DNA of 19,881 bases from Escherichia coli (GTDB taxonomy: Bacteria > Pseudomonadota > Gammaproteobacteria > Enterobacterales > Enterobacteriaceae). Shown here one piece after another: positions 8,787 to 16,965 of this stretch. The notes under the pieces were generated by a model. It was not told the origin of the DNA and searched no databases. It saw nothing but the letters and a program-made list of their open reading frames with translations. The stretch lies in NCBI RefSeq assembly GCF_003334785.1, contig NZ_QOWV01000032.1. One strand, 5' to 3'. The first letter of the stretch is position 1. Every line of letters begins with the position of its first letter. Position numbers and translations under genes: made by a program.

Positions 8787-9254
8787 ATGACAGCGGCAGA
8801 AAATCACACTGTTCCGGAAATGAATAAAACGGTTGAGCAAATGCTGGCACAAGGACAATGGCAGGATGCGCTTGATTTCTGGATTAATAATACCGATTCG
8901 TTAACATTAATTAAATGGCTGGCACAATTCATTTCTCAGTCCTCTTCTGAAGATGATTCGGTACTTTTACAGTCTATTGTAAAATGGAAGGAAGGCGATG
9001 AGGAACAACGCTGGGAAATATTTAAAAACTCGGAGTCTGCCGGATTTTCCTCTCAGACAGGTGCCCTTGGGTTATCATTATTTGTATCACAGGGAAGTCT
9101 AAGTCCGCCCCCGTATGAACCAGTCCATGCACCGTCATGTTCAGAAAAAAAAATTATATATGGTGTCTTAATGACTCAGTCGTGTAAAGCTCATGATACG
9201 CCGGATGAAGGTGTGTTTTTTCTTTTTCAGCATTGGTGTAATAGTCAACCTTAG
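8787..9254 (+). CDS. hypothetical protein (155 aa) between vgrG and PAAR; candidate spike-associated accessory/adaptor or cargo
   Basis: Good RBS (AAGGA) upstream and tight spacing to vgrG (10 bp) and PAAR (8 bp). Trp-rich N-terminal half (QGQWQDALDFWINNTDSLTLIKWLAQFI) and Cys-containing C-terminus. No family recognised by eye. Contains an A9 tract at 9145-9153. Confidence 0.6.
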   Translation: MTAAENHTVPEMNKTVEQMLAQGQWQDALDFWINNTDSLTLIKWLAQFISQSSSEDDSVLLQSIVKWKEGDEEQRWEIFKNSESAGFSSQTGALGLSLFVSQGSLSPPPYEPVHAPSCSEKKIIYGVLMTQSCKAHDTPDEGVFFLFQHWCNSQP

Positions 9255-9262
9255 GAGGGGAT

Positions 9263-9562
9263 ATGCCTCAACCCGCTGCAAGAGTGACTGATATGCATGT
9301 ATGTCCTATGGTGACGCCAGGTTTGCCACCTGTTCCTCATGTAGGAGGCCCCTTGTTACCACCAGGCTCTCCGTCTGTACTCATTGGGGGATTACCGGCA
9401 GCGACGCTGGGGAACCAGGCACTTTGTACCGGGGCAGTGGACGTCGTCATTATGGGCAGTTTTAAAGTTTTTATATGCGGCAAACCGGCCGCACGGATGG
9501 GCGATAACTGTGCTCATGGGGGGGTAATTGTCAGCGGATATCCTCAGGTATTAGTGGGATAA
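9263..9562 (+). CDS. PAAR-domain spike tip protein (stand-alone, no toxin extension)
   Basis: 99 aa with strong RBS AGGAGG. Three PAAR-type repeats visible: PAARVTD, PAATLGNQALC, PAARMGDNCAHGG. Confidence 0.9.
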   Translation: MPQPAARVTDMHVCPMVTPGLPPVPHVGGPLLPPGSPSVLIGGLPAATLGNQALCTGAVDVVIMGSFKVFICGKPAARMGDNCAHGGVIVSGYPQVLVG

Positions 9563-9565
9563 AAA

Positions 9566-10642
9566 ATGAATAAATTCGAGACGGACACATTACTGTTTCC
9601 TGTTATTGGAGAATCGCCGGCAGGTGAAGATATTGAGTATGATCCGGTGTATAGCGAAATACGGGAAGCAAGACAAAATGATCCGGACTACATGTCCCAG
9701 GGGGAATGGGCTGTCAGTGAACCCCGCAGAGCTGACTGGCGAAAGGTAAGAAAATTATGTGAGGTTACTTTACGCAATAAGAGTAAAGACCTGCAGATTA
9801 GTTGCTGGTATGTGGAGTCCCTGACGCAATTGTATTCGCTGGAAGGGCTGCACTGCGGACTGGAATATCTGGCTAAATTTATTTCTCAGTACTGGACTAT
9901 ATGTTGGCCATCGCACGAAGAAGGCCCGGAAATACGTTACAGTAAATTAGTCCGTCTTGATATGGATTTATCCGAGTATCTGAAATCCTGTCCTCTTCTT
10001 GATGATAAAGAAATCACGCTTGCTGAATGGTATAAGGCGCTGGCGTTTGAGCATGGCGCAAGTTTATCTGAAGAGGGAAAGGAAAAATTAATAGAAAGCG
10101 AAGGCGATCACTCGGTTGAAGCGTTCAAAAAATCTGTCGGTAAATATAATACACGCAAGATTAGTGAGCAATTTCTTAAGTTTTCTGATTTGCCAGACAA
10201 AATTGATGAGATTGAATCCTTTTACTTCTTTCATACGCATGAAGACATACATCATATTTTCGCAAAAACCAGACATACCATCAGTGAAATCACTGAGTTA
10301 CTGAGCCGTTTTTTACCACAAGACGTACAGGATACCAATGCAGTTTCACCGTTATCAGTTGAACCCGGGAGCAGGGAGACAGACAGGACGTTGCCGGCGG
10401 AACAGCAGGCGTTTTATGCTGCCTTAACCCCCTCAACAGATAAAGAGATGACAAGGGAGAAAGCGATAGAACAACTGGAAAAAATAGCTATTTTTTTCAG
10501 GCAATCTGAACCCACCAGTCCTGTCCCTTATCTTCTTGAGAGAGCAGTACGCTGGTCAACAATGACTATGTCAGAATGGCTTGAGGAACTACTTAAAGAT
10601 AATGACTCCGTGGAACAAATAAATCGTGTTTTAAAAGGATGA
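9566..10642 (+). CDS. tssA: TssA-family protein (ImpA N-terminal domain), short form
   Basis: 358 aa. The N-terminus GEDIEYDPVYSEIREARQ...WRKVRKLCEVTLRNKSKDLQISCWYVESL...YW matches the ImpA_N signature. Shorter than many TssA proteins. Confidence 0.8.
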   Translation: MNKFETDTLLFPVIGESPAGEDIEYDPVYSEIREARQNDPDYMSQGEWAVSEPRRADWRKVRKLCEVTLRNKSKDLQISCWYVESLTQLYSLEGLHCGLEYLAKFISQYWTICWPSHEEGPEIRYSKLVRLDMDLSEYLKSCPLLDDKEITLAEWYKALAFEHGASLSEEGKEKLIESEGDHSVEAFKKSVGKYNTRKISEQFLKFSDLPDKIDEIESFYFFHTHEDIHHIFAKTRHTISEITELLSRFLPQDVQDTNAVSPLSVEPGSRETDRTLPAEQQAFYAALTPSTDKEMTREKAIEQLEKIAIFFRQSEPTSPVPYLLERAVRWSTMTMSEWLEELLKDNDSVEQINRVLKG

Positions 10643-11219: not shown

Positions 11220-12599
11220 ATGCAAGAAGAAGAGCAACTTGTTTATTGGTATTCAGGGCTTTACTTACAACCTCAGCACTTTCAGTCCATTGATTTGCAT
11301 CATAGTTTCATGCTGGCCAGAACCAGGCAGTTATCACAACCTCATCATCAGGGTTATTATGAATGTCGTATAAATGATGATCTTCTGAAAGAATACACTG
11401 TTAGAATCGAAAAAATAAAAGCAGTGTTATCTTCAGGACATTATATCGAGTATCCGGGTAACTGTGTGGTGCAGGATAAGTGCCTGACAAATCTCCGGGG
11501 TACAGATCCCGGCACCGTAACGTTGTGGCTTGCTCTTAAGCGATTTAATTCCGGACATAAAAATGTATCTGGCATCAATGATAAACGCGGCTCTGCCAGA
11601 TGGGTAAGTTCCGATGATGAAGGCAACATGCGTAATGTGTATCATGACAGTCAGGATGCCGGTATCACAAGAATAAAATATGATATTCAGATCCTTACCG
11701 ATGAGGAAAAAGAGAATACCACAGACTTTGAATACTTACCTCTGACAAGAATTATTCATGACAATAATACATTGTGTATTGATGATGAATATTCATTTCC
11801 TGCAATGAGGTTATCAGCGAACAGCAAACTTAGAGATAAGATCGCAGAGATTCATGCTGATATTCAATTCTACAAAAATAAACTTGAAGAATACCGATAT
11901 ACAGAACGAACAGTGTCCGATGGACATCTTTATAATTTTTTGATCCTGTGTGCTATTAACAGAATATCACCGCTTCTGTCTTCCTTTATTAATGAAGATG
12001 CCATTCACCCATGGTTATATTATATGGCATTGTGTCAGTTTACAGGGGAAATATCGACATTTAAAAATTCTGTATTTTCAGAGGCAAGAATTGTTGATCT
12101 AACATACAATCATTATGAGCAGGTTTCCTGTTTCAGTAATCTTCAGTATTATATTAAAGTAATGCTTGATAATTTATGTAGAGATAAGATTATCGGTGTT
12201 GAATTTAAAAAGATAACAACAGATACCCTGGTCTGTAATTTTGATGAGTACAGTTCCAGAAATAATTCAGATTACTATATTAAATTAACTTCAGAGACCT
12301 TTAAAAAGAATAACTCAATTGCATTGCCCGAGATTAAGATTGCTCCATCTGAACATATAGATCTGATCATTCAGCATGCGCTTCCAGGCATTACTTTTAC
12401 AGTGATGGATGTCGTTACATCTGAGTTACAGGTAAGAGACAATATCATCTGGTTAAAGATCGATAAACATTCAGAGTTATGGAAGTCAGCTCAGGTCCAG
12501 AAAAGGGTTGCATTTTATTGGTCATGTAGCCCTGATGATTTACTGGTAGAGTTAGTATTATCGCAGGAAAAAATATGCAGTAAGCCGTCTTCCGGCTGA
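11220..12599 (+). CDS. tssK: T6SS baseplate protein TssK
   Basis: N-terminus LVYWYSGLYLQPQHFQSIDLH matches the conserved TssK start (VxWxEGMxLxPQHFQQ). ATG 11220 chosen; the ORF track extends to a TTG at 11202 directly after the tssJ stop. Confidence 0.9.
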   Translation: MQEEEQLVYWYSGLYLQPQHFQSIDLHHSFMLARTRQLSQPHHQGYYECRINDDLLKEYTVRIEKIKAVLSSGHYIEYPGNCVVQDKCLTNLRGTDPGTVTLWLALKRFNSGHKNVSGINDKRGSARWVSSDDEGNMRNVYHDSQDAGITRIKYDIQILTDEEKENTTDFEYLPLTRIIHDNNTLCIDDEYSFPAMRLSANSKLRDKIAEIHADIQFYKNKLEEYRYTERTVSDGHLYNFLILCAINRISPLLSSFINEDAIHPWLYYMALCQFTGEISTFKNSVFSEARIVDLTYNHYEQVSCFSNLQYYIKVMLDNLCRDKIIGVEFKKITTDTLVCNFDEYSSRNNSDYYIKLTSETFKKNNSIALPEIKIAPSEHIDLIIQHALPGITFTVMDVVTSELQVRDNIIWLKIDKHSELWKSAQVQKRVAFYWSCSPDDLLVELVLSQEKICSKPSSG

Positions 12600-12936
12600 G
12601 GGGGCGAACCAGACGGCGGATGGCAGAGAAGGGTCCATTCACTGCCAGTGCCTGAAACAGCTTTTTCTCCGTCAGTGGAATCCGGATCTCAGAACAAGAC
12701 CTGTCAGGCGCTACAGGGAAACCTGATGGCAGAACAGAAAATGGCAGAATGTTCGTGAACACGATGAAGGAAGCTGCATCGCGTTCATGCCTGACCATAT
12801 GTAAGCTCTGCAGTGGTTCGGACATTAAGGAGAGACCTCCGCACAGTGCACGGGTATGTTGCTCACCTGGCGAATGTCAGTATCCGTGGGCAGATTTCAG
12901 TTACAGTTTATCGTTTCCGGGGACAAAACATGTTAT
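12600..12936. other. GC-richer, apparently non-coding block interrupting the otherwise tightly packed operon between tssK and tssL
   Basis: Only intergenic gap >12 bp inside the cluster. Base composition is visibly G+C-richer than the flanks. The octamer ATGGCAGA occurs three times (12620, 12726, 12741). Only short or Cys-rich ORFs of doubtful reality. Confidence 0.5.
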
Positions 12937-13554
12937 ATGAATATTTATGTCATGGAGGTACTGGTGAATATTGTTGAATGCTATATGCCAGTATTTAAAC
13001 TCATATCATCTGTTAAAGTCTTTCCAGAAGAATATGGTGATTACGACAGTACCAGAAAGCAGATAATTGATACTGTTGAAGATGTCGTGCGCAATAGTGA
13101 AAAAATATCTTTAAGTGACAGTGAACTGGATGCGGCATTTTATTCAATAGTTGTTATGCTTGATGAGGTTATTTTGTGCTCTGAACTTCCGTACAGAAAA
13201 GAATGGCGCGATAATCTTTTACAGATTAAATATTTTGGACATTCCACTGGCGGTGTTGAGTTTTTTAACATGCTTAATAAAGTCATTGAATCCGGAAGTC
13301 AGGTTGCATGGGTTTTTCTCTTATGTCTCTTACTTGGATTCAGGGGGAAATATTCTGTAAGCAATGATGATGAAATCCTGGATTATATATCAAGACTGAA
13401 AAAACAATGCGGGTTAAATATTCGTGTTGAAGAAAAAAATAAGATCGCATTTAAACAAAAAAAGAATAAATCATCATGGTTTAATTTTTATTTGTCACTT
13501 GCAGGTATCATTATTATTTATTTCGTATTGTTGTTTGTGATATATGTGAGATGA
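12937..13554 (+). CDS. tssL: T6SS membrane protein TssL (DotU-like), short form with C-terminal TM anchor
   Basis: DotU-like cytosolic region followed by a single C-terminal hydrophobic helix (WFNFYLSLAGIIIIYFVLLFVIYV). Start uncertain: in-frame ATGs at 12856, 12937 and 12952; 12937 chosen because 12856-12936 lies in the GC-rich block. Confidence 0.78.
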   Translation: MNIYVMEVLVNIVECYMPVFKLISSVKVFPEEYGDYDSTRKQIIDTVEDVVRNSEKISLSDSELDAAFYSIVVMLDEVILCSELPYRKEWRDNLLQIKYFGHSTGGVEFFNMLNKVIESGSQVAWVFLLCLLLGFRGKYSVSNDDEILDYISRLKKQCGLNIRVEEKNKIAFKQKKNKSSWFNFYLSLAGIIIIYFVLLFVIYVR

Positions 13555-13560
13555 TCTCTT

Positions 13561-16500
13561 ATGCTTAAGAAGATATTTTCATTGTTTCTCTGGATTTTTG
13601 TGTCTGTTTTCGTTTTATCTGTTTGTTATGTCATTGGCGTGTTCAGAAACTGGACAGATACTACAACTGTATTTTACTGGATTTTTGTAATTCTGGTTAC
13701 ACTCACCCTGAAATTGATTGTGGATTGTATCCATAATTACTTTTCGTCAGGTAAATACAGAAAGCTGGTGAGGTTATTTTCCAGGAAAAAAAGAACAATA
13801 ACACTTGATTCATACTTCAGGAAAGGAATGAATATCATAAGTAAAAAAGGAAGAGGCGTGGTCCCCTGGTTTTTACTTACGGGGGATTCAGAAAAAAACG
13901 CTTCCCTGCTTAAGGATATTAATCTTCCCGTCTTTCACAGTAATGAGTTAAATGGTATTTCTCAACAATTCAGAACAATTCGTTGGTGGTTTTTCAGGGA
14001 TTCAAGTGTACTGGAGTTGTCAGGTAAGATATATGACAACCCGGGGGTGCTGAACTCTGTGATAGGTTTTTTATCAGCACGTAACTCTAAAAAACAACCA
14101 CCTCATGGCATTGTTCTGGTTATTCCTGTTGAAACGTTACTTGATCATGATTACTCCTGTATTCAGGTGTTATCTCAAAAAACAAGAAATTTTACAGAAC
14201 AACTGTCGTCACACTTACATCATAATATCCCAGTTTTTCTGGTTATAAGTGGATGCGAGCACATCAGTGGGTATTCATCGCTGGCACAAAAAATTCATCA
14301 AAAAAATAACAATGGGTATCCGGTATTTTGGGCAACCAATAAATCAGACACAAATGCATCTGAATATGACTCATCATATATATTGTCATCATTAAAATCT
14401 AATATTACGATAGAAATATGTCATGTACTTGATGATACATTGAGTGACCAGGAAAAAAACGAGATCCTGTTGTTTCCGGATAAATTGAATGATCTAAAAC
14501 ATTCACTGGATGTGTTTATTTCAACATTCAGTATCGATAACGTGTTTTTTTCTCAGACAGAAGTCTCCGGGGTCTGTTTATCTGGTGAACTCGTTTCGGG
14601 TAAGGATAAAAATTGTACTTTTTCTGATGTTTTAGTTTCTGAGATCCTACCACAAATACAGAACTCAGAAGTTATTCACGTTAATAAACGAAGAATAAAA
14701 ATGTCATTCAGATCCGTTATGGTTATGACGGCGCTGTGCTTTATTGGATATAGTGCATATTGTTCATATCATATATATGATGTCAGGCAAGGTTCTGTGG
14801 AGATCAGCCCTGCATTCCTGACTGAGCAAATATTAAAATATGAAGATAAAGTCAGATCTAATATACTTTATTTACCTTTTAAACCGGCATTGAATGATAA
14901 ATATTTATTTTTCAGAGAGTCTCTTTATAACAGTAGCAGATTCGAGACCCGTCCTGTTTCATGGCGCGTTGATGAATATAAGAAAAAATTCCTTGCGGCT
15001 TCCCCATCAGGAAAGCGTGAATTGATTCTGTCGCTTGCCTCATCGCTTATCGGTTGGGATAAGATGGTTAAGGATGAATCACTGCTTGATTTAACAACAT
15101 TTCCGGGTATTCATGAATCAATAAAAATAACCAGACCTTATGATAAAATATCATCAATAGCTTCACTGGCTTTAGAAAGAGATGAGATACAAAAAAATCA
15201 TGGAAGTGAAAATATTGATGTGTTCAGAAAACTCCTTAGCGAGTTTATTCAGAGTGATCCATCTTATTCATGGTTTGTTTCTGAATATGTTGATATTCCG
15301 GCCGTAAAAGTTACGGATTTCTGGGAAGATGAAAACGCATCTGTCAGTCTGTCTGGTATATGGACTCAGGAGGGACAGAATAAACTTCATCACTGGTATG
15401 AGAATATCAAAGAGGCATATGGACGTGATACGGTTCCGGAAGCGTTTTCATCTTTTGTGCAGTACCTGGAAGAAAGTCGTCAGGAGCATTTCAGACAGTT
15501 CATCATGGCTGTCGCAAGGGAGCGTAAAGATTCACATTCAGGGTTAATGAGTCCGCTGCAGTTGACAGATATCATACAAAATCGTTCATCTGAGCATAAA
15601 TTCTTTAAGTTTGTTGATGATGAATTACATAATATCCCGGCAAGTTCAGCGCAGGACTGGCTTTCTGATTTCAGGCTGCTTTATCGTCTGTTTTCTCTTA
15701 AAGTGGATAACGGAATGAAGCGTCAGATAGAGCAGTTTGACATCATGGTACGTATATATCTGATGTCTGTTTTTAATAACAGTCAGATGAACAGGACAAC
15801 GGCTCATGTAACAGCATGGAGAGACTGGCAGAATGTGCTACGTAATGCCGTAAATTCAGAGTTACATACAGCATCATCCGTTGAACTGATCCGTAATGCT
15901 ATGCGTTCAGACCCAAAAAACAAGCTGGTAATATTATTTGATGAATTTGAAAAGGTTCGTTCAGTGATTAACAGTAATAATACAGATCCAGTGATTGATT
16001 CTGTATGGGATATTTATGAACGGCAAAATTATAAACTTCTCGACCATGCAGTCACGTATACGGGGTGCAGGGTTGATGAACAATGGAGAAATTCTGTTTT
16101 AAGCCAGTTAAATTCAGATAAACACAATTCCAGTCATTCTGAAATGCAGGGTAAAATATATAAAAACATTATTGGTTTTTTAAATGGATCCGCTAACGGT
16201 GTTTTAGCACTTGATGCCGAAGGTGCCAGAGTATTGTCGTTCAGGGAAAGAAGTATACCGTTTACGCCTTCATTCATTAGTTTTCTCAATGACGTTGTTT
16301 CTCCGGATGATTTGCTTGACGTTCAGCTCAGAGACCGAACGCAAAACAAGGATGAGCTGATAAATGTACAGGGACAATTAGACGTACTGAATCAGACCCT
16401 GCAAAAGATTGAATCACAGCCTTACAAAATGACGGTAAGTAGTGCACCTGCGACGATTTCAGGTCATCATGGCGTTAAACCAACAGGTACAACTCTGACT

Positions 16501-16965
16501 CTTGAGTGCAAAACAGGTAACAGCAGTATAAGAAGCATGAATTTTGCCGATTCAGGTCTTTTTACCTGGTATCCAGGAAGTTGTCATTCTGTCAGCATTG
16601 ATATTTCGTTCCCTGACTTTTCCACCACCTATAAATTCACAGGTGAAACAGCCTGGATTGATTTTATCAACAAGTTTTCGGATGGAGAGGATGAGTTAAT
16701 GACAAAGGACTTTTCTCCGGAATCAAGAAGTTTTCTTGAATCAATGGGTATAAAAAGTATCCTCGTCCGTTACAAACTGAGTGATACCGGCGATCTCAGT
16801 CAGGCATATATCGAATGGGAACAGTTAAAACAGGAAAAGGATAAACTTGAAAATTTGCAGATTAGTCTGAGTAATAAACTGCTTACCACTCATAGCTGGG
16901 AGAAAAGTGGCTGGATTTCCAGATTGCCTGGCAAAATAACAATATGTCCGGCAGTACAGGAGTGA
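13561..16965 (+). CDS. tssM: T6SS membrane complex protein TssM (IcmF-like) with degenerate Walker A
   Basis: 1134 aa. Two N-terminal TM helices, cytoplasmic domain, third TM (MSFRSVMVMTALCFIGYSAYC), large C-terminal periplasmic region. Where canonical TssM has PWYL..G.PG.GK[ST], this one reads VPWFLLTGDSEKNAS. Confidence 0.95.
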   Translation: MLKKIFSLFLWIFVSVFVLSVCYVIGVFRNWTDTTTVFYWIFVILVTLTLKLIVDCIHNYFSSGKYRKLVRLFSRKKRTITLDSYFRKGMNIISKKGRGVVPWFLLTGDSEKNASLLKDINLPVFHSNELNGISQQFRTIRWWFFRDSSVLELSGKIYDNPGVLNSVIGFLSARNSKKQPPHGIVLVIPVETLLDHDYSCIQVLSQKTRNFTEQLSSHLHHNIPVFLVISGCEHISGYSSLAQKIHQKNNNGYPVFWATNKSDTNASEYDSSYILSSLKSNITIEICHVLDDTLSDQEKNEILLFPDKLNDLKHSLDVFISTFSIDNVFFSQTEVSGVCLSGELVSGKDKNCTFSDVLVSEILPQIQNSEVIHVNKRRIKMSFRSVMVMTALCFIGYSAYCSYHIYDVRQGSVEISPAFLTEQILKYEDKVRSNILYLPFKPALNDKYLFFRESLYNSSRFETRPVSWRVDEYKKKFLAASPSGKRELILSLASSLIGWDKMVKDESLLDLTTFPGIHESIKITRPYDKISSIASLALERDEIQKNHGSENIDVFRKLLSEFIQSDPSYSWFVSEYVDIPAVKVTDFWEDENASVSLSGIWTQEGQNKLHHWYENIKEAYGRDTVPEAFSSFVQYLEESRQEHFRQFIMAVARERKDSHSGLMSPLQLTDIIQNRSSEHKFFKFVDDELHNIPASSAQDWLSDFRLLYRLFSLKVDNGMKRQIEQFDIMVRIYLMSVFNNSQMNRTTAHVTAWRDWQNVLRNAVNSELHTASSVELIRNAMRSDPKNKLVILFDEFEKVRSVINSNNTDPVIDSVWDIYERQNYKLLDHAVTYTGCRVDEQWRNSVLSQLNSDKHNSSHSEMQGKIYKNIIGFLNGSANGVLALDAEGARVLSFRERSIPFTPSFISFLNDVVSPDDLLDVQLRDRTQNKDELINVQGQLDVLNQTLQKIESQPYKMTVSSAPATISGHHGVKPTGTTLTLECKTGNSSIRSMNFADSGLFTWYPGSCHSVSIDISFPDFSTTYKFTGETAWIDFINKFSDGEDELMTKDFSPESRSFLESMGIKSILVRYKLSDTGDLSQAYIEWEQLKQEKDKLENLQISLSNKLLTTHSWEKSGWISRLPGKITICPAVQE

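Follow-up and report, generated by a model that had tools for sequence, protein, structure and literature searches.

We examined a 155-codon open reading frame (ORF) that lies in a type VI secretion system (T6SS) gene cluster of Escherichia coli. The stretch of DNA analysed, 19,881 nucleotides long and called the window here, holds a complete T6SS cluster with all genes on the + strand, in the order tssB, tssC, hcp, tssE, tssF, tssG, vgrG, the ORF, PAAR, tssA, tssJ, tssK, tssL, tssM and clpV. The ORF runs from ATG to TAG at 8787-9254 (+ strand) and encodes a member of the DUF6931 family. As a first-pass annotation of this sequence had stated, it is the sole non-core gene of the operon, and the surrounding genes are T6SS core components. 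The upstream vgrG gene (6737-8776, +) ends 10 bp before it and the PAAR gene (9263-9562, +) starts 8 bp after it. This tight spacing, and the good ribosome-binding site ascribed to the ORF, are borne out by the sequence: a Shine-Dalgarno-like AAGGA (8776-8780, +) lies 6 nt before the ATG and overlaps the last base of the vgrG stop codon, while the PAAR gene has its own AGGAGG ribosome-binding site (9253-9258), which overlaps the stop codon of the ORF. VgrG (679 aa; TIGR03361, E=4e-105) has no C-terminal toxin or adaptor-binding extension, and PAAR (99 aa; NF033420) is equally bare, as the annotation had it; nor is an effector/immunity pair visible in the window.

The encoded protein has a mass of 17.4 kDa and an isoelectric point of 4.6. 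Five of its six Trp residues (25, 32, 44, 67, 76 and 150) fall within residues 1-76, in keeping with the Trp-rich N-terminal half described earlier. The Cys-containing tail that was described with it is present too, in the form of three Cys residues (118, 133 and 151), but these are not conserved in the family and were rejected as a motif. No secretion signal and no enzymatic domain were found in the protein, and searches of Pfam, NCBIfam and PADLOC revealed no toxin domain. Using the chromosomal orthologue of E. coli M18, which is 86% identical in amino acid sequence, we obtained a ratio of nonsynonymous to synonymous substitution rates (dN/dS) of 0.20 for the ORF, compared with 0.205 for tssA, 0.199 for tssM and 0.226 for vgrG. 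The DUF6931 gene is thus under purifying selection like the core genes. From this ratio, and from homologues that hold the corresponding slot in other genera, we conclude that the ORF is a genuine gene and not a chance frame.

Although the first-pass annotation could assign no motif, the protein matches Pfam DUF6931 (PF22011; E=1.7e-12, 48.1 bits), with residues 16-133 aligned to positions 2-122 of the 145-position model, and the identical protein WP_032179440.1 is named 'DUF6931 family protein' in RefSeq. A Pfam scan to E<=10 returned only this family and an insignificant Adipogenin match, so that none of the known adaptor families that might have explained the ORF (DUF4123, DUF1795/Eag, DUF2169) was found, and the single protein had no match in NCBIfam, PHROGs, PADLOC or PDB sequences. 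A domain split off from a neighbouring core gene, specifically TssA, had also been raised as a possible origin; the TssA of the window is complete (TIGR03363, residues 7-356), and aligning the family alignment against it with hhalign gave a probability of 0.2%, which rules out a split TssA. An HMMER search of 1.84 billion representative proteins yielded 37 clusters at E<=0.001, indicating that the DUF6931 family is small and divergent. Two profile searches of a 5.8-billion-protein set returned stand-alone DUF6931 proteins only, with no fusion to PAAR or VgrG, and therefore supply no Rosetta-stone evidence.

The most conserved part of the protein is encoded by codons 75-118 (9009-9140, +), which show invariant or near-invariant alignment columns and cover helices 5-6 and an ordered loop (102-118). 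R75, G86, F99, G103 and S104 are invariant in the 27-member alignment. The family motif reads R-W-x-I-F ... G-F-x-T-P-x-G-x-L-A-L-S-x-F-W-S-x-G-S-M-S-P-x3-E-P-V-Y-P; within codons 75-118 it takes the form R75-W-x-I-F, G86-F, L96, F99 and G103-S104-(M/L)-S-P-x3-E-P-V-x-P. This stretch is kept in distant homologues beside bare or toxin-bearing PAARs and in a divergent Serratia member, while W25, W67 and W76 are conserved among enterobacterial members. An AlphaFold2 model built from the family alignment shows eight helices (pLDDT, the per-residue confidence score, 95.5; pTM, the predicted template-modelling score, 0.88) and places the G-S-(M/L)-S-P...E-P-V motif in the ordered 17-residue loop, at pLDDT 94-96. 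The window protein shares fold and core motif with the other DUF6931 members. It is a typical member of a family that is catalogued without an assigned function.

DUF6931 bears some resemblance to the immunity protein SsdAI (PDB 7jtu_B) and to Imm-5-like and DUF416 proteins, at 6-8% identity. This likeness appears to be a weak fold-level similarity, with homology not demonstrated, since the family profile did not find SsdAI among PDB sequences even at E<=10. The only PDB matches of the family profile, designed helical-repeat proteins, were set aside as spurious sums of weak repeats. When DUF6931 was co-folded with PAAR as a DUF6931-(G4S)6-PAAR fusion (13 paired and 17 unpaired alignment rows), the PAAR half remained unfolded (pLDDT about 30, pTM 0.56), so the model gives no reading on the interface.

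Genomic context provides the strongest evidence on the role of DUF6931. In about 20 independent loci, some with toxin-bearing PAARs, the DUF6931 gene is immediately followed by a PAAR gene, and in nearly all loci vgrG immediately precedes DUF6931. We looked up 12 distant homologues in metagenome and genome contigs, one of which is too short to show the downstream neighbour. DUF6931 directly precedes PAAR in all 11 informative cases, and vgrG directly precedes DUF6931 wherever the contig reaches that far. The DUF6931 stop overlaps the PAAR start in four loci (our locus records L004, L011 and L016, and a JGI contig). A degenerate DNA motif scan over 100,044 species genomes gave eight loci, from Rahnella (three), Kosakonia (two), Citrobacter youngae, an Enterobacter sp. 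and one metagenome-assembled genome, and those that extend far enough all have the order tssG-vgrG-DUF6931-PAAR-tssA-tssJ. Compared with the window, DUF6931 in these eight loci is 32-38% identical, the core proteins 35-47% and PAAR 70-75%; DUF6931 thus diverges about as much as the core proteins. The conservation check that had been proposed for this ORF accordingly has a clear outcome: the vgrG-DUF6931-PAAR order is kept in every syntenic cluster examined. By Foldseek against AFDB50, the family occurs among Enterobacterales in Ewingella, Kosakonia, Hafnia, Tatumella, Rahnella, Yersinia, Cedecea, Salmonella, Photorhabdus and Morganella, and beyond them in Alphaproteobacteria and Planctomycetes.

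Linkage to PAAR was also evident on plasmids. By tblastn against the plasmid collection PLSDB, 84 records have DUF6931 and 87 have the PAAR subclass, and the genera common to both sets have the same number of records in each. Of the three records in which PAAR alone was matched, Serratia pE46_2 was looked into: the 198-aa gene in the slot is a divergent DUF6931 (hhalign 99.3%, E=7e-21). In this Serratia marcescens plasmid the PAAR gene (L027 4001-4291) is unannotated, and the DUF6931 gene upstream of it is labelled hypothetical. PAAR is the most likely partner of DUF6931, and VgrG is a candidate partner. The PAAR subclass is 70-75% identical across genera, and is conserved at about 70% identity from E. 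coli to planctomycete-like metagenome contigs (L005, L007, L009, L010, L012 and L017), and bears the N-terminal signature M-x-Q-P-A-A-R-V-x-D-M-H-V-C-P-M-V-T-P-G-x-P-P-x-P-H-V-G-G-P. Among solved structures, it is closest to the tip protein SalCis10 (chain 9rce_c, E=1.7e-31) rather than to the classical T6SS PAARs 4jiv and 4jiw.

Some of the PAARs next to DUF6931 carry toxins, namely Peptidase_M91 in L005/L006 and L017 and the anthrax-lethal-factor-like domain ATLF in L007/L008. The PAAR-metalloprotease fusions span L005 8729-9601 and L017 1728-2741 (Peptidase_M91) and L007 8642-9550 (ATLF); the PAAR start in L005 is mis-called, with the true N-terminus about 35 codons further upstream. Separate small ORFs follow the PAAR-toxin genes of L005, L007 and L017 in the usual immunity position, and these unannotated ORFs may be the immunity genes of the M91 and ATLF fusions. 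One exception to the PAAR linkage was found, a second DUF6931 copy in L007 that comes after vgrG, a HEAT-repeat gene and a gene for a 299-aa protein, and before another vgrG. This module (L007 3066-5617) encodes VgrG, the HEAT-repeat protein (330 aa), the 299-aa protein, which has a proline-rich N-terminus and no Pfam match, and DUF6931 (213 aa), with no PAAR of its own. Here DUF6931 may serve a partner other than PAAR, as part of a cargo module.

A further feature of the family is its recurrent fusion to FHA or YscD-type domains. Nine of the best 50 AFDB50 Foldseek matches are proteins of 283-394 aa with an FHA or YscD-type domain N-terminal to DUF6931, and such fusions are frequent in Planctomycetes and other phyla. 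In L009, an FHA-DUF6931 fusion (P0037) is encoded between VgrG and a 99-aa PAAR, and its FHA phosphothreonine-binding residues GR...SxxH...NG are intact. The Pfam scan found no FHA domain in the 155-aa window protein itself; FHA occurs only in fused homologues such as P0037. What is new here is the consistent, phylum-spanning vgrG-DUF6931-PAAR linkage together with the FHA fusions; both suggest that these proteins are a separate family of spike accessories.

Weighing this evidence, which is drawn from sequences and predicted models, we put at roughly 0.5 the probability that DUF6931 acts in the cytoplasm as an accessory or chaperone, with PAAR or the VgrG tip as its binding partner, and is neither a toxin nor an immunity protein. 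On this view the protein, cytoplasmic, acidic and all-alpha, would be an accessory devoted to the VgrG-PAAR spike module of this T6SS lineage. Its helix5-helix6-loop surface (R75, G86, F99, G103-S104 and the proline-rich E-P-V-x-P loop) would be the site that binds either the conserved PAAR domain or the tip of VgrG. In this way DUF6931 might keep PAAR competent for docking, and promote or license the step in which PAAR caps the VgrG trimer, ahead of closure of the baseplate and membrane complex around the trimer, while the FHA-fused versions would tie spike loading to phosphothreonine signalling. A housekeeping spike accessory, as opposed to a toxin, a toxin-specific immunity protein or a niche effector, is suggested because DUF6931 is inherited and diverges with the core machine, keeps one surface motif whether PAAR is bare or carries whichever toxin, is often translationally coupled to PAAR, lacks a secretion signal or enzymatic domain, and has repeatedly been fused to a cytoplasmic phosphopeptide-binding domain. 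The positional analogy with TagA/B-5 of the Burkholderia T6SS-5 lends support to this class of function. The first-pass annotation had proposed a spike-loaded factor or a novel structural accessory: the association with the spike stands, given the vgrG-DUF6931-PAAR order, while the small cargo effector that it had also entertained is made less likely by co-evolution with the core machine, a motif that is independent of toxin, and the FHA fusion in some lineages.

A cytoplasmic accessory has to be weighed against a passenger of the spike, that is, a DUF6931 protein that stays on VgrG/PAAR and is fired out with it, either to decorate the tip or to act as a small effector without enzymatic activity, for instance on eukaryotic hosts. 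Such a protein would show the same tight linkage to vgrG and PAAR, and the small, acidic and soluble character of DUF6931 would suit it. The window offers no other effector with its immunity partner, aai, the system to which this cluster is assigned below, is a virulence-associated T6SS, and we know of no effector of it. Effectors usually vary with niche, however, whereas here one motif is conserved from enteric bacteria to Alphaproteobacteria and Planctomycetes, divergence is in step with the core machine, and fusion to FHA, a cytoplasmic signalling module, recurs; Pfam, NCBIfam and PADLOC also gave no catalytic or known toxin domain. We therefore regard export on the spike as unlikely.

The FHA fusions raise another alternative, in which DUF6931 is the spike-docking half of a TagH/Fha-like checkpoint whose FHA half was lost in E. 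coli, and which gates or times assembly instead of acting as a chaperone of PAAR. The frequency of the 283-394-aa FHA-/YscD-like fusions in Planctomycetes and other phyla, the position of P0037 between VgrG and a 99-aa PAAR, and a Ser/Thr kinase gene near the L007 cluster all fit such a scaffold. On the other hand, the window encodes no kinase, phosphatase or FHA protein, and the Pfam scan matched no T6SS FHA-associated family. This regulatory role overlaps with that of an accessory or chaperone; as an explanation of its own we find it doubtful, and rank it below the passenger. The searchable literature holds no experimental data on aaiH or DUF6931. Finally, it is very improbable that DUF6931 is a relative of SsdAI/Imm5 that neutralises a toxin, an idea that accords with the immunity label given to it by the only paper that mentions DUF6931 (a preprint on a Pseudovibrio T6SS, in which the gene also lies between vgrG and PAAR), as the window has no toxin, the family does not depend on the type of toxin (it precedes bare PAARs as well as PAARs fused to M91 or ATLF), its place upstream of PAAR is the wrong one for immunity, and it evolves in line with the core genes.

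A bolder form of the accessory proposal can be put forward as speculation, one that we think improbable as a whole. DUF6931 would then be a PAAR-docking chaperone found across phyla: it would cover the surface with which one ancient PAAR subclass binds VgrG and pass PAAR on to the VgrG trimer, with the FHA forms linking Thr phosphorylation to spike loading. It would constitute an essential, subtype-specific 'fourteenth' component, possibly with an exapted immunity-protein fold.

We also placed the gene within E. coli. Among 5426 complete E. coli genomes, 99 have a match (51 chromosomal and 48 on plasmids), with at least 80% of the ORF covered in all 99, and in each of the 30 records listed (30/30) the match falls under a gene annotated as DUF6931 family protein. 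No complete genome that carries the cluster was without the gene. A chromosomal orthologue of 85.5% nucleotide identity occupies the same slot in the aai cluster of strains 55989 (enteroaggregative E. coli, EAEC) and O104:H4. In the record of that cluster the third gene is annotated aaiC, the only aai gene named; counted from it, the ORF would be at the aaiH position of the EAEC aai (T6SS-3) operon. A 2014 survey (PMC4028294) lists aaiA-aaiN together with a divergent, probably plasmid-borne aai homologue, and did not detect aaiC, aaiH and aaiI in strains with that homologue.

The window cluster is a plasmid copy of the E. coli aai-type T6SS. Window positions 8000-10000 are 100% identical to E. 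coli plasmids such as pWP7-S17-ESBL-04_2, and in plasmids of this type insertion sequence (IS) elements lie on both sides of the T6SS cluster and type IV pilus genes adjoin it. The cluster forms an island on the plasmid, as seen in window 1-1086 and beyond 19497 (L001 1-4718 and 23873-26001). Upstream of the island, the plasmid record shows remnants of IS21/IS100 and a type IV pilus ATPase gene that is truncated; downstream are an IS3 fragment and a VasL-domain gene. Of the 84 PLSDB plasmids with the DUF6931 gene, 47 are predicted to be conjugative.

Several other features of the cluster were observed. tssM (13561-16965) is an intact ORF of 1134 aa in the window, whereas in NZ_AP022179.1 (L001 17562-20967), the plasmid record that matches window positions 8000-10000 at 100% identity, the gene has one extra base and is marked as frameshifted; the frameshift reflects either a sequencing error in that record or an inactive system. 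Between tssK and the annotated DotU/tssL start, 337 bp (12600-12936) carry no annotated gene. A mechanical ORF at 12856-13554 would make tssL longer by 27 codons at its upstream end, and an antisense ORF of 126 aa (12445-12825) overlaps the region of this gap. Going by the lettering of the aai operon, aaiM presumably lies somewhere around here. By far the most diverged gene between the plasmid cluster and the chromosomal M18 cluster is hcp (3054-3575), with 68% amino acid identity and a dN/dS of 0.48, compared with 96.5% and 0.06 for the adjacent tssC, which suggests recombination or diversifying selection on the tube protein.

Little is understood of how bare PAARs are delivered to VgrG, or of why the spike module of some T6SS lineages contains additional conserved genes. 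Should DUF6931 be an assembly factor for PAAR/VgrG, it would be a fourth adaptor/chaperone family, one that serves the machine itself and not its cargo, and would give a role to the one gene of the aai T6SS that lacks an assignment; this T6SS is a diagnostic virulence locus in EAEC and is also spreading on conjugative plasmids. The FHA fusions would then offer a handle on the post-translational control of spike loading. If the gene is dispensable, DUF6931 would be one more conserved hypothetical gene. Either way, caution is due with the 'immunity' label that is now entering annotations of DUF6931.

DUF6931 can be compared with several known systems. The DUF6931/aaiH genes of chromosomal aai clusters have the same motif, length and neighbours as the window gene, which shows no difference in kind and is a plasmid-borne allele. 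DUF4123 (Tap/TEC), DUF1795 (Eag) and DUF2169 proteins are, like DUF6931, small non-toxins, cytoplasmic in their case, whose genes lie beside vgrG and precede the gene for the PAAR or effector that they serve, but they share no profile match with it. SsdAI, Imm-5-like and DUF416 proteins differ from DUF6931 in the low identity given above, in the lack of a profile match and in that no cognate toxin is present here. TagH/Fha scaffolds resemble the family through the N-terminal FHA domain of some DUF6931 proteins in T6SS spike modules, and differ in that the window protein has no such domain and the window cluster no kinase or phosphatase. Edwardsiella EvpJ was considered as a counterpart and rejected: it looks like a PAAR gene, as the deletion-primer sequence encodes an end of ...VLIGG stop. 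TagC-5 was ruled out as an equivalent, being a DUF3540 protein. The closest parallel in position is the Burkholderia T6SS-5, in which TagA/B-5, TagB-5 and TagC-5 occupy the same slot in a cluster of nearly the same gene order as the window. There, three genes take the place of one, and they encode pentapeptide-repeat proteins and DUF3540, not DUF6931, so that the likeness is positional only. Hcp-5 secretion depends on TagA/B-5, whose gene lies after vgrG-5 and before the PAAR-like tagD-5, and the protein is not counted among the effectors (PMC6335564).
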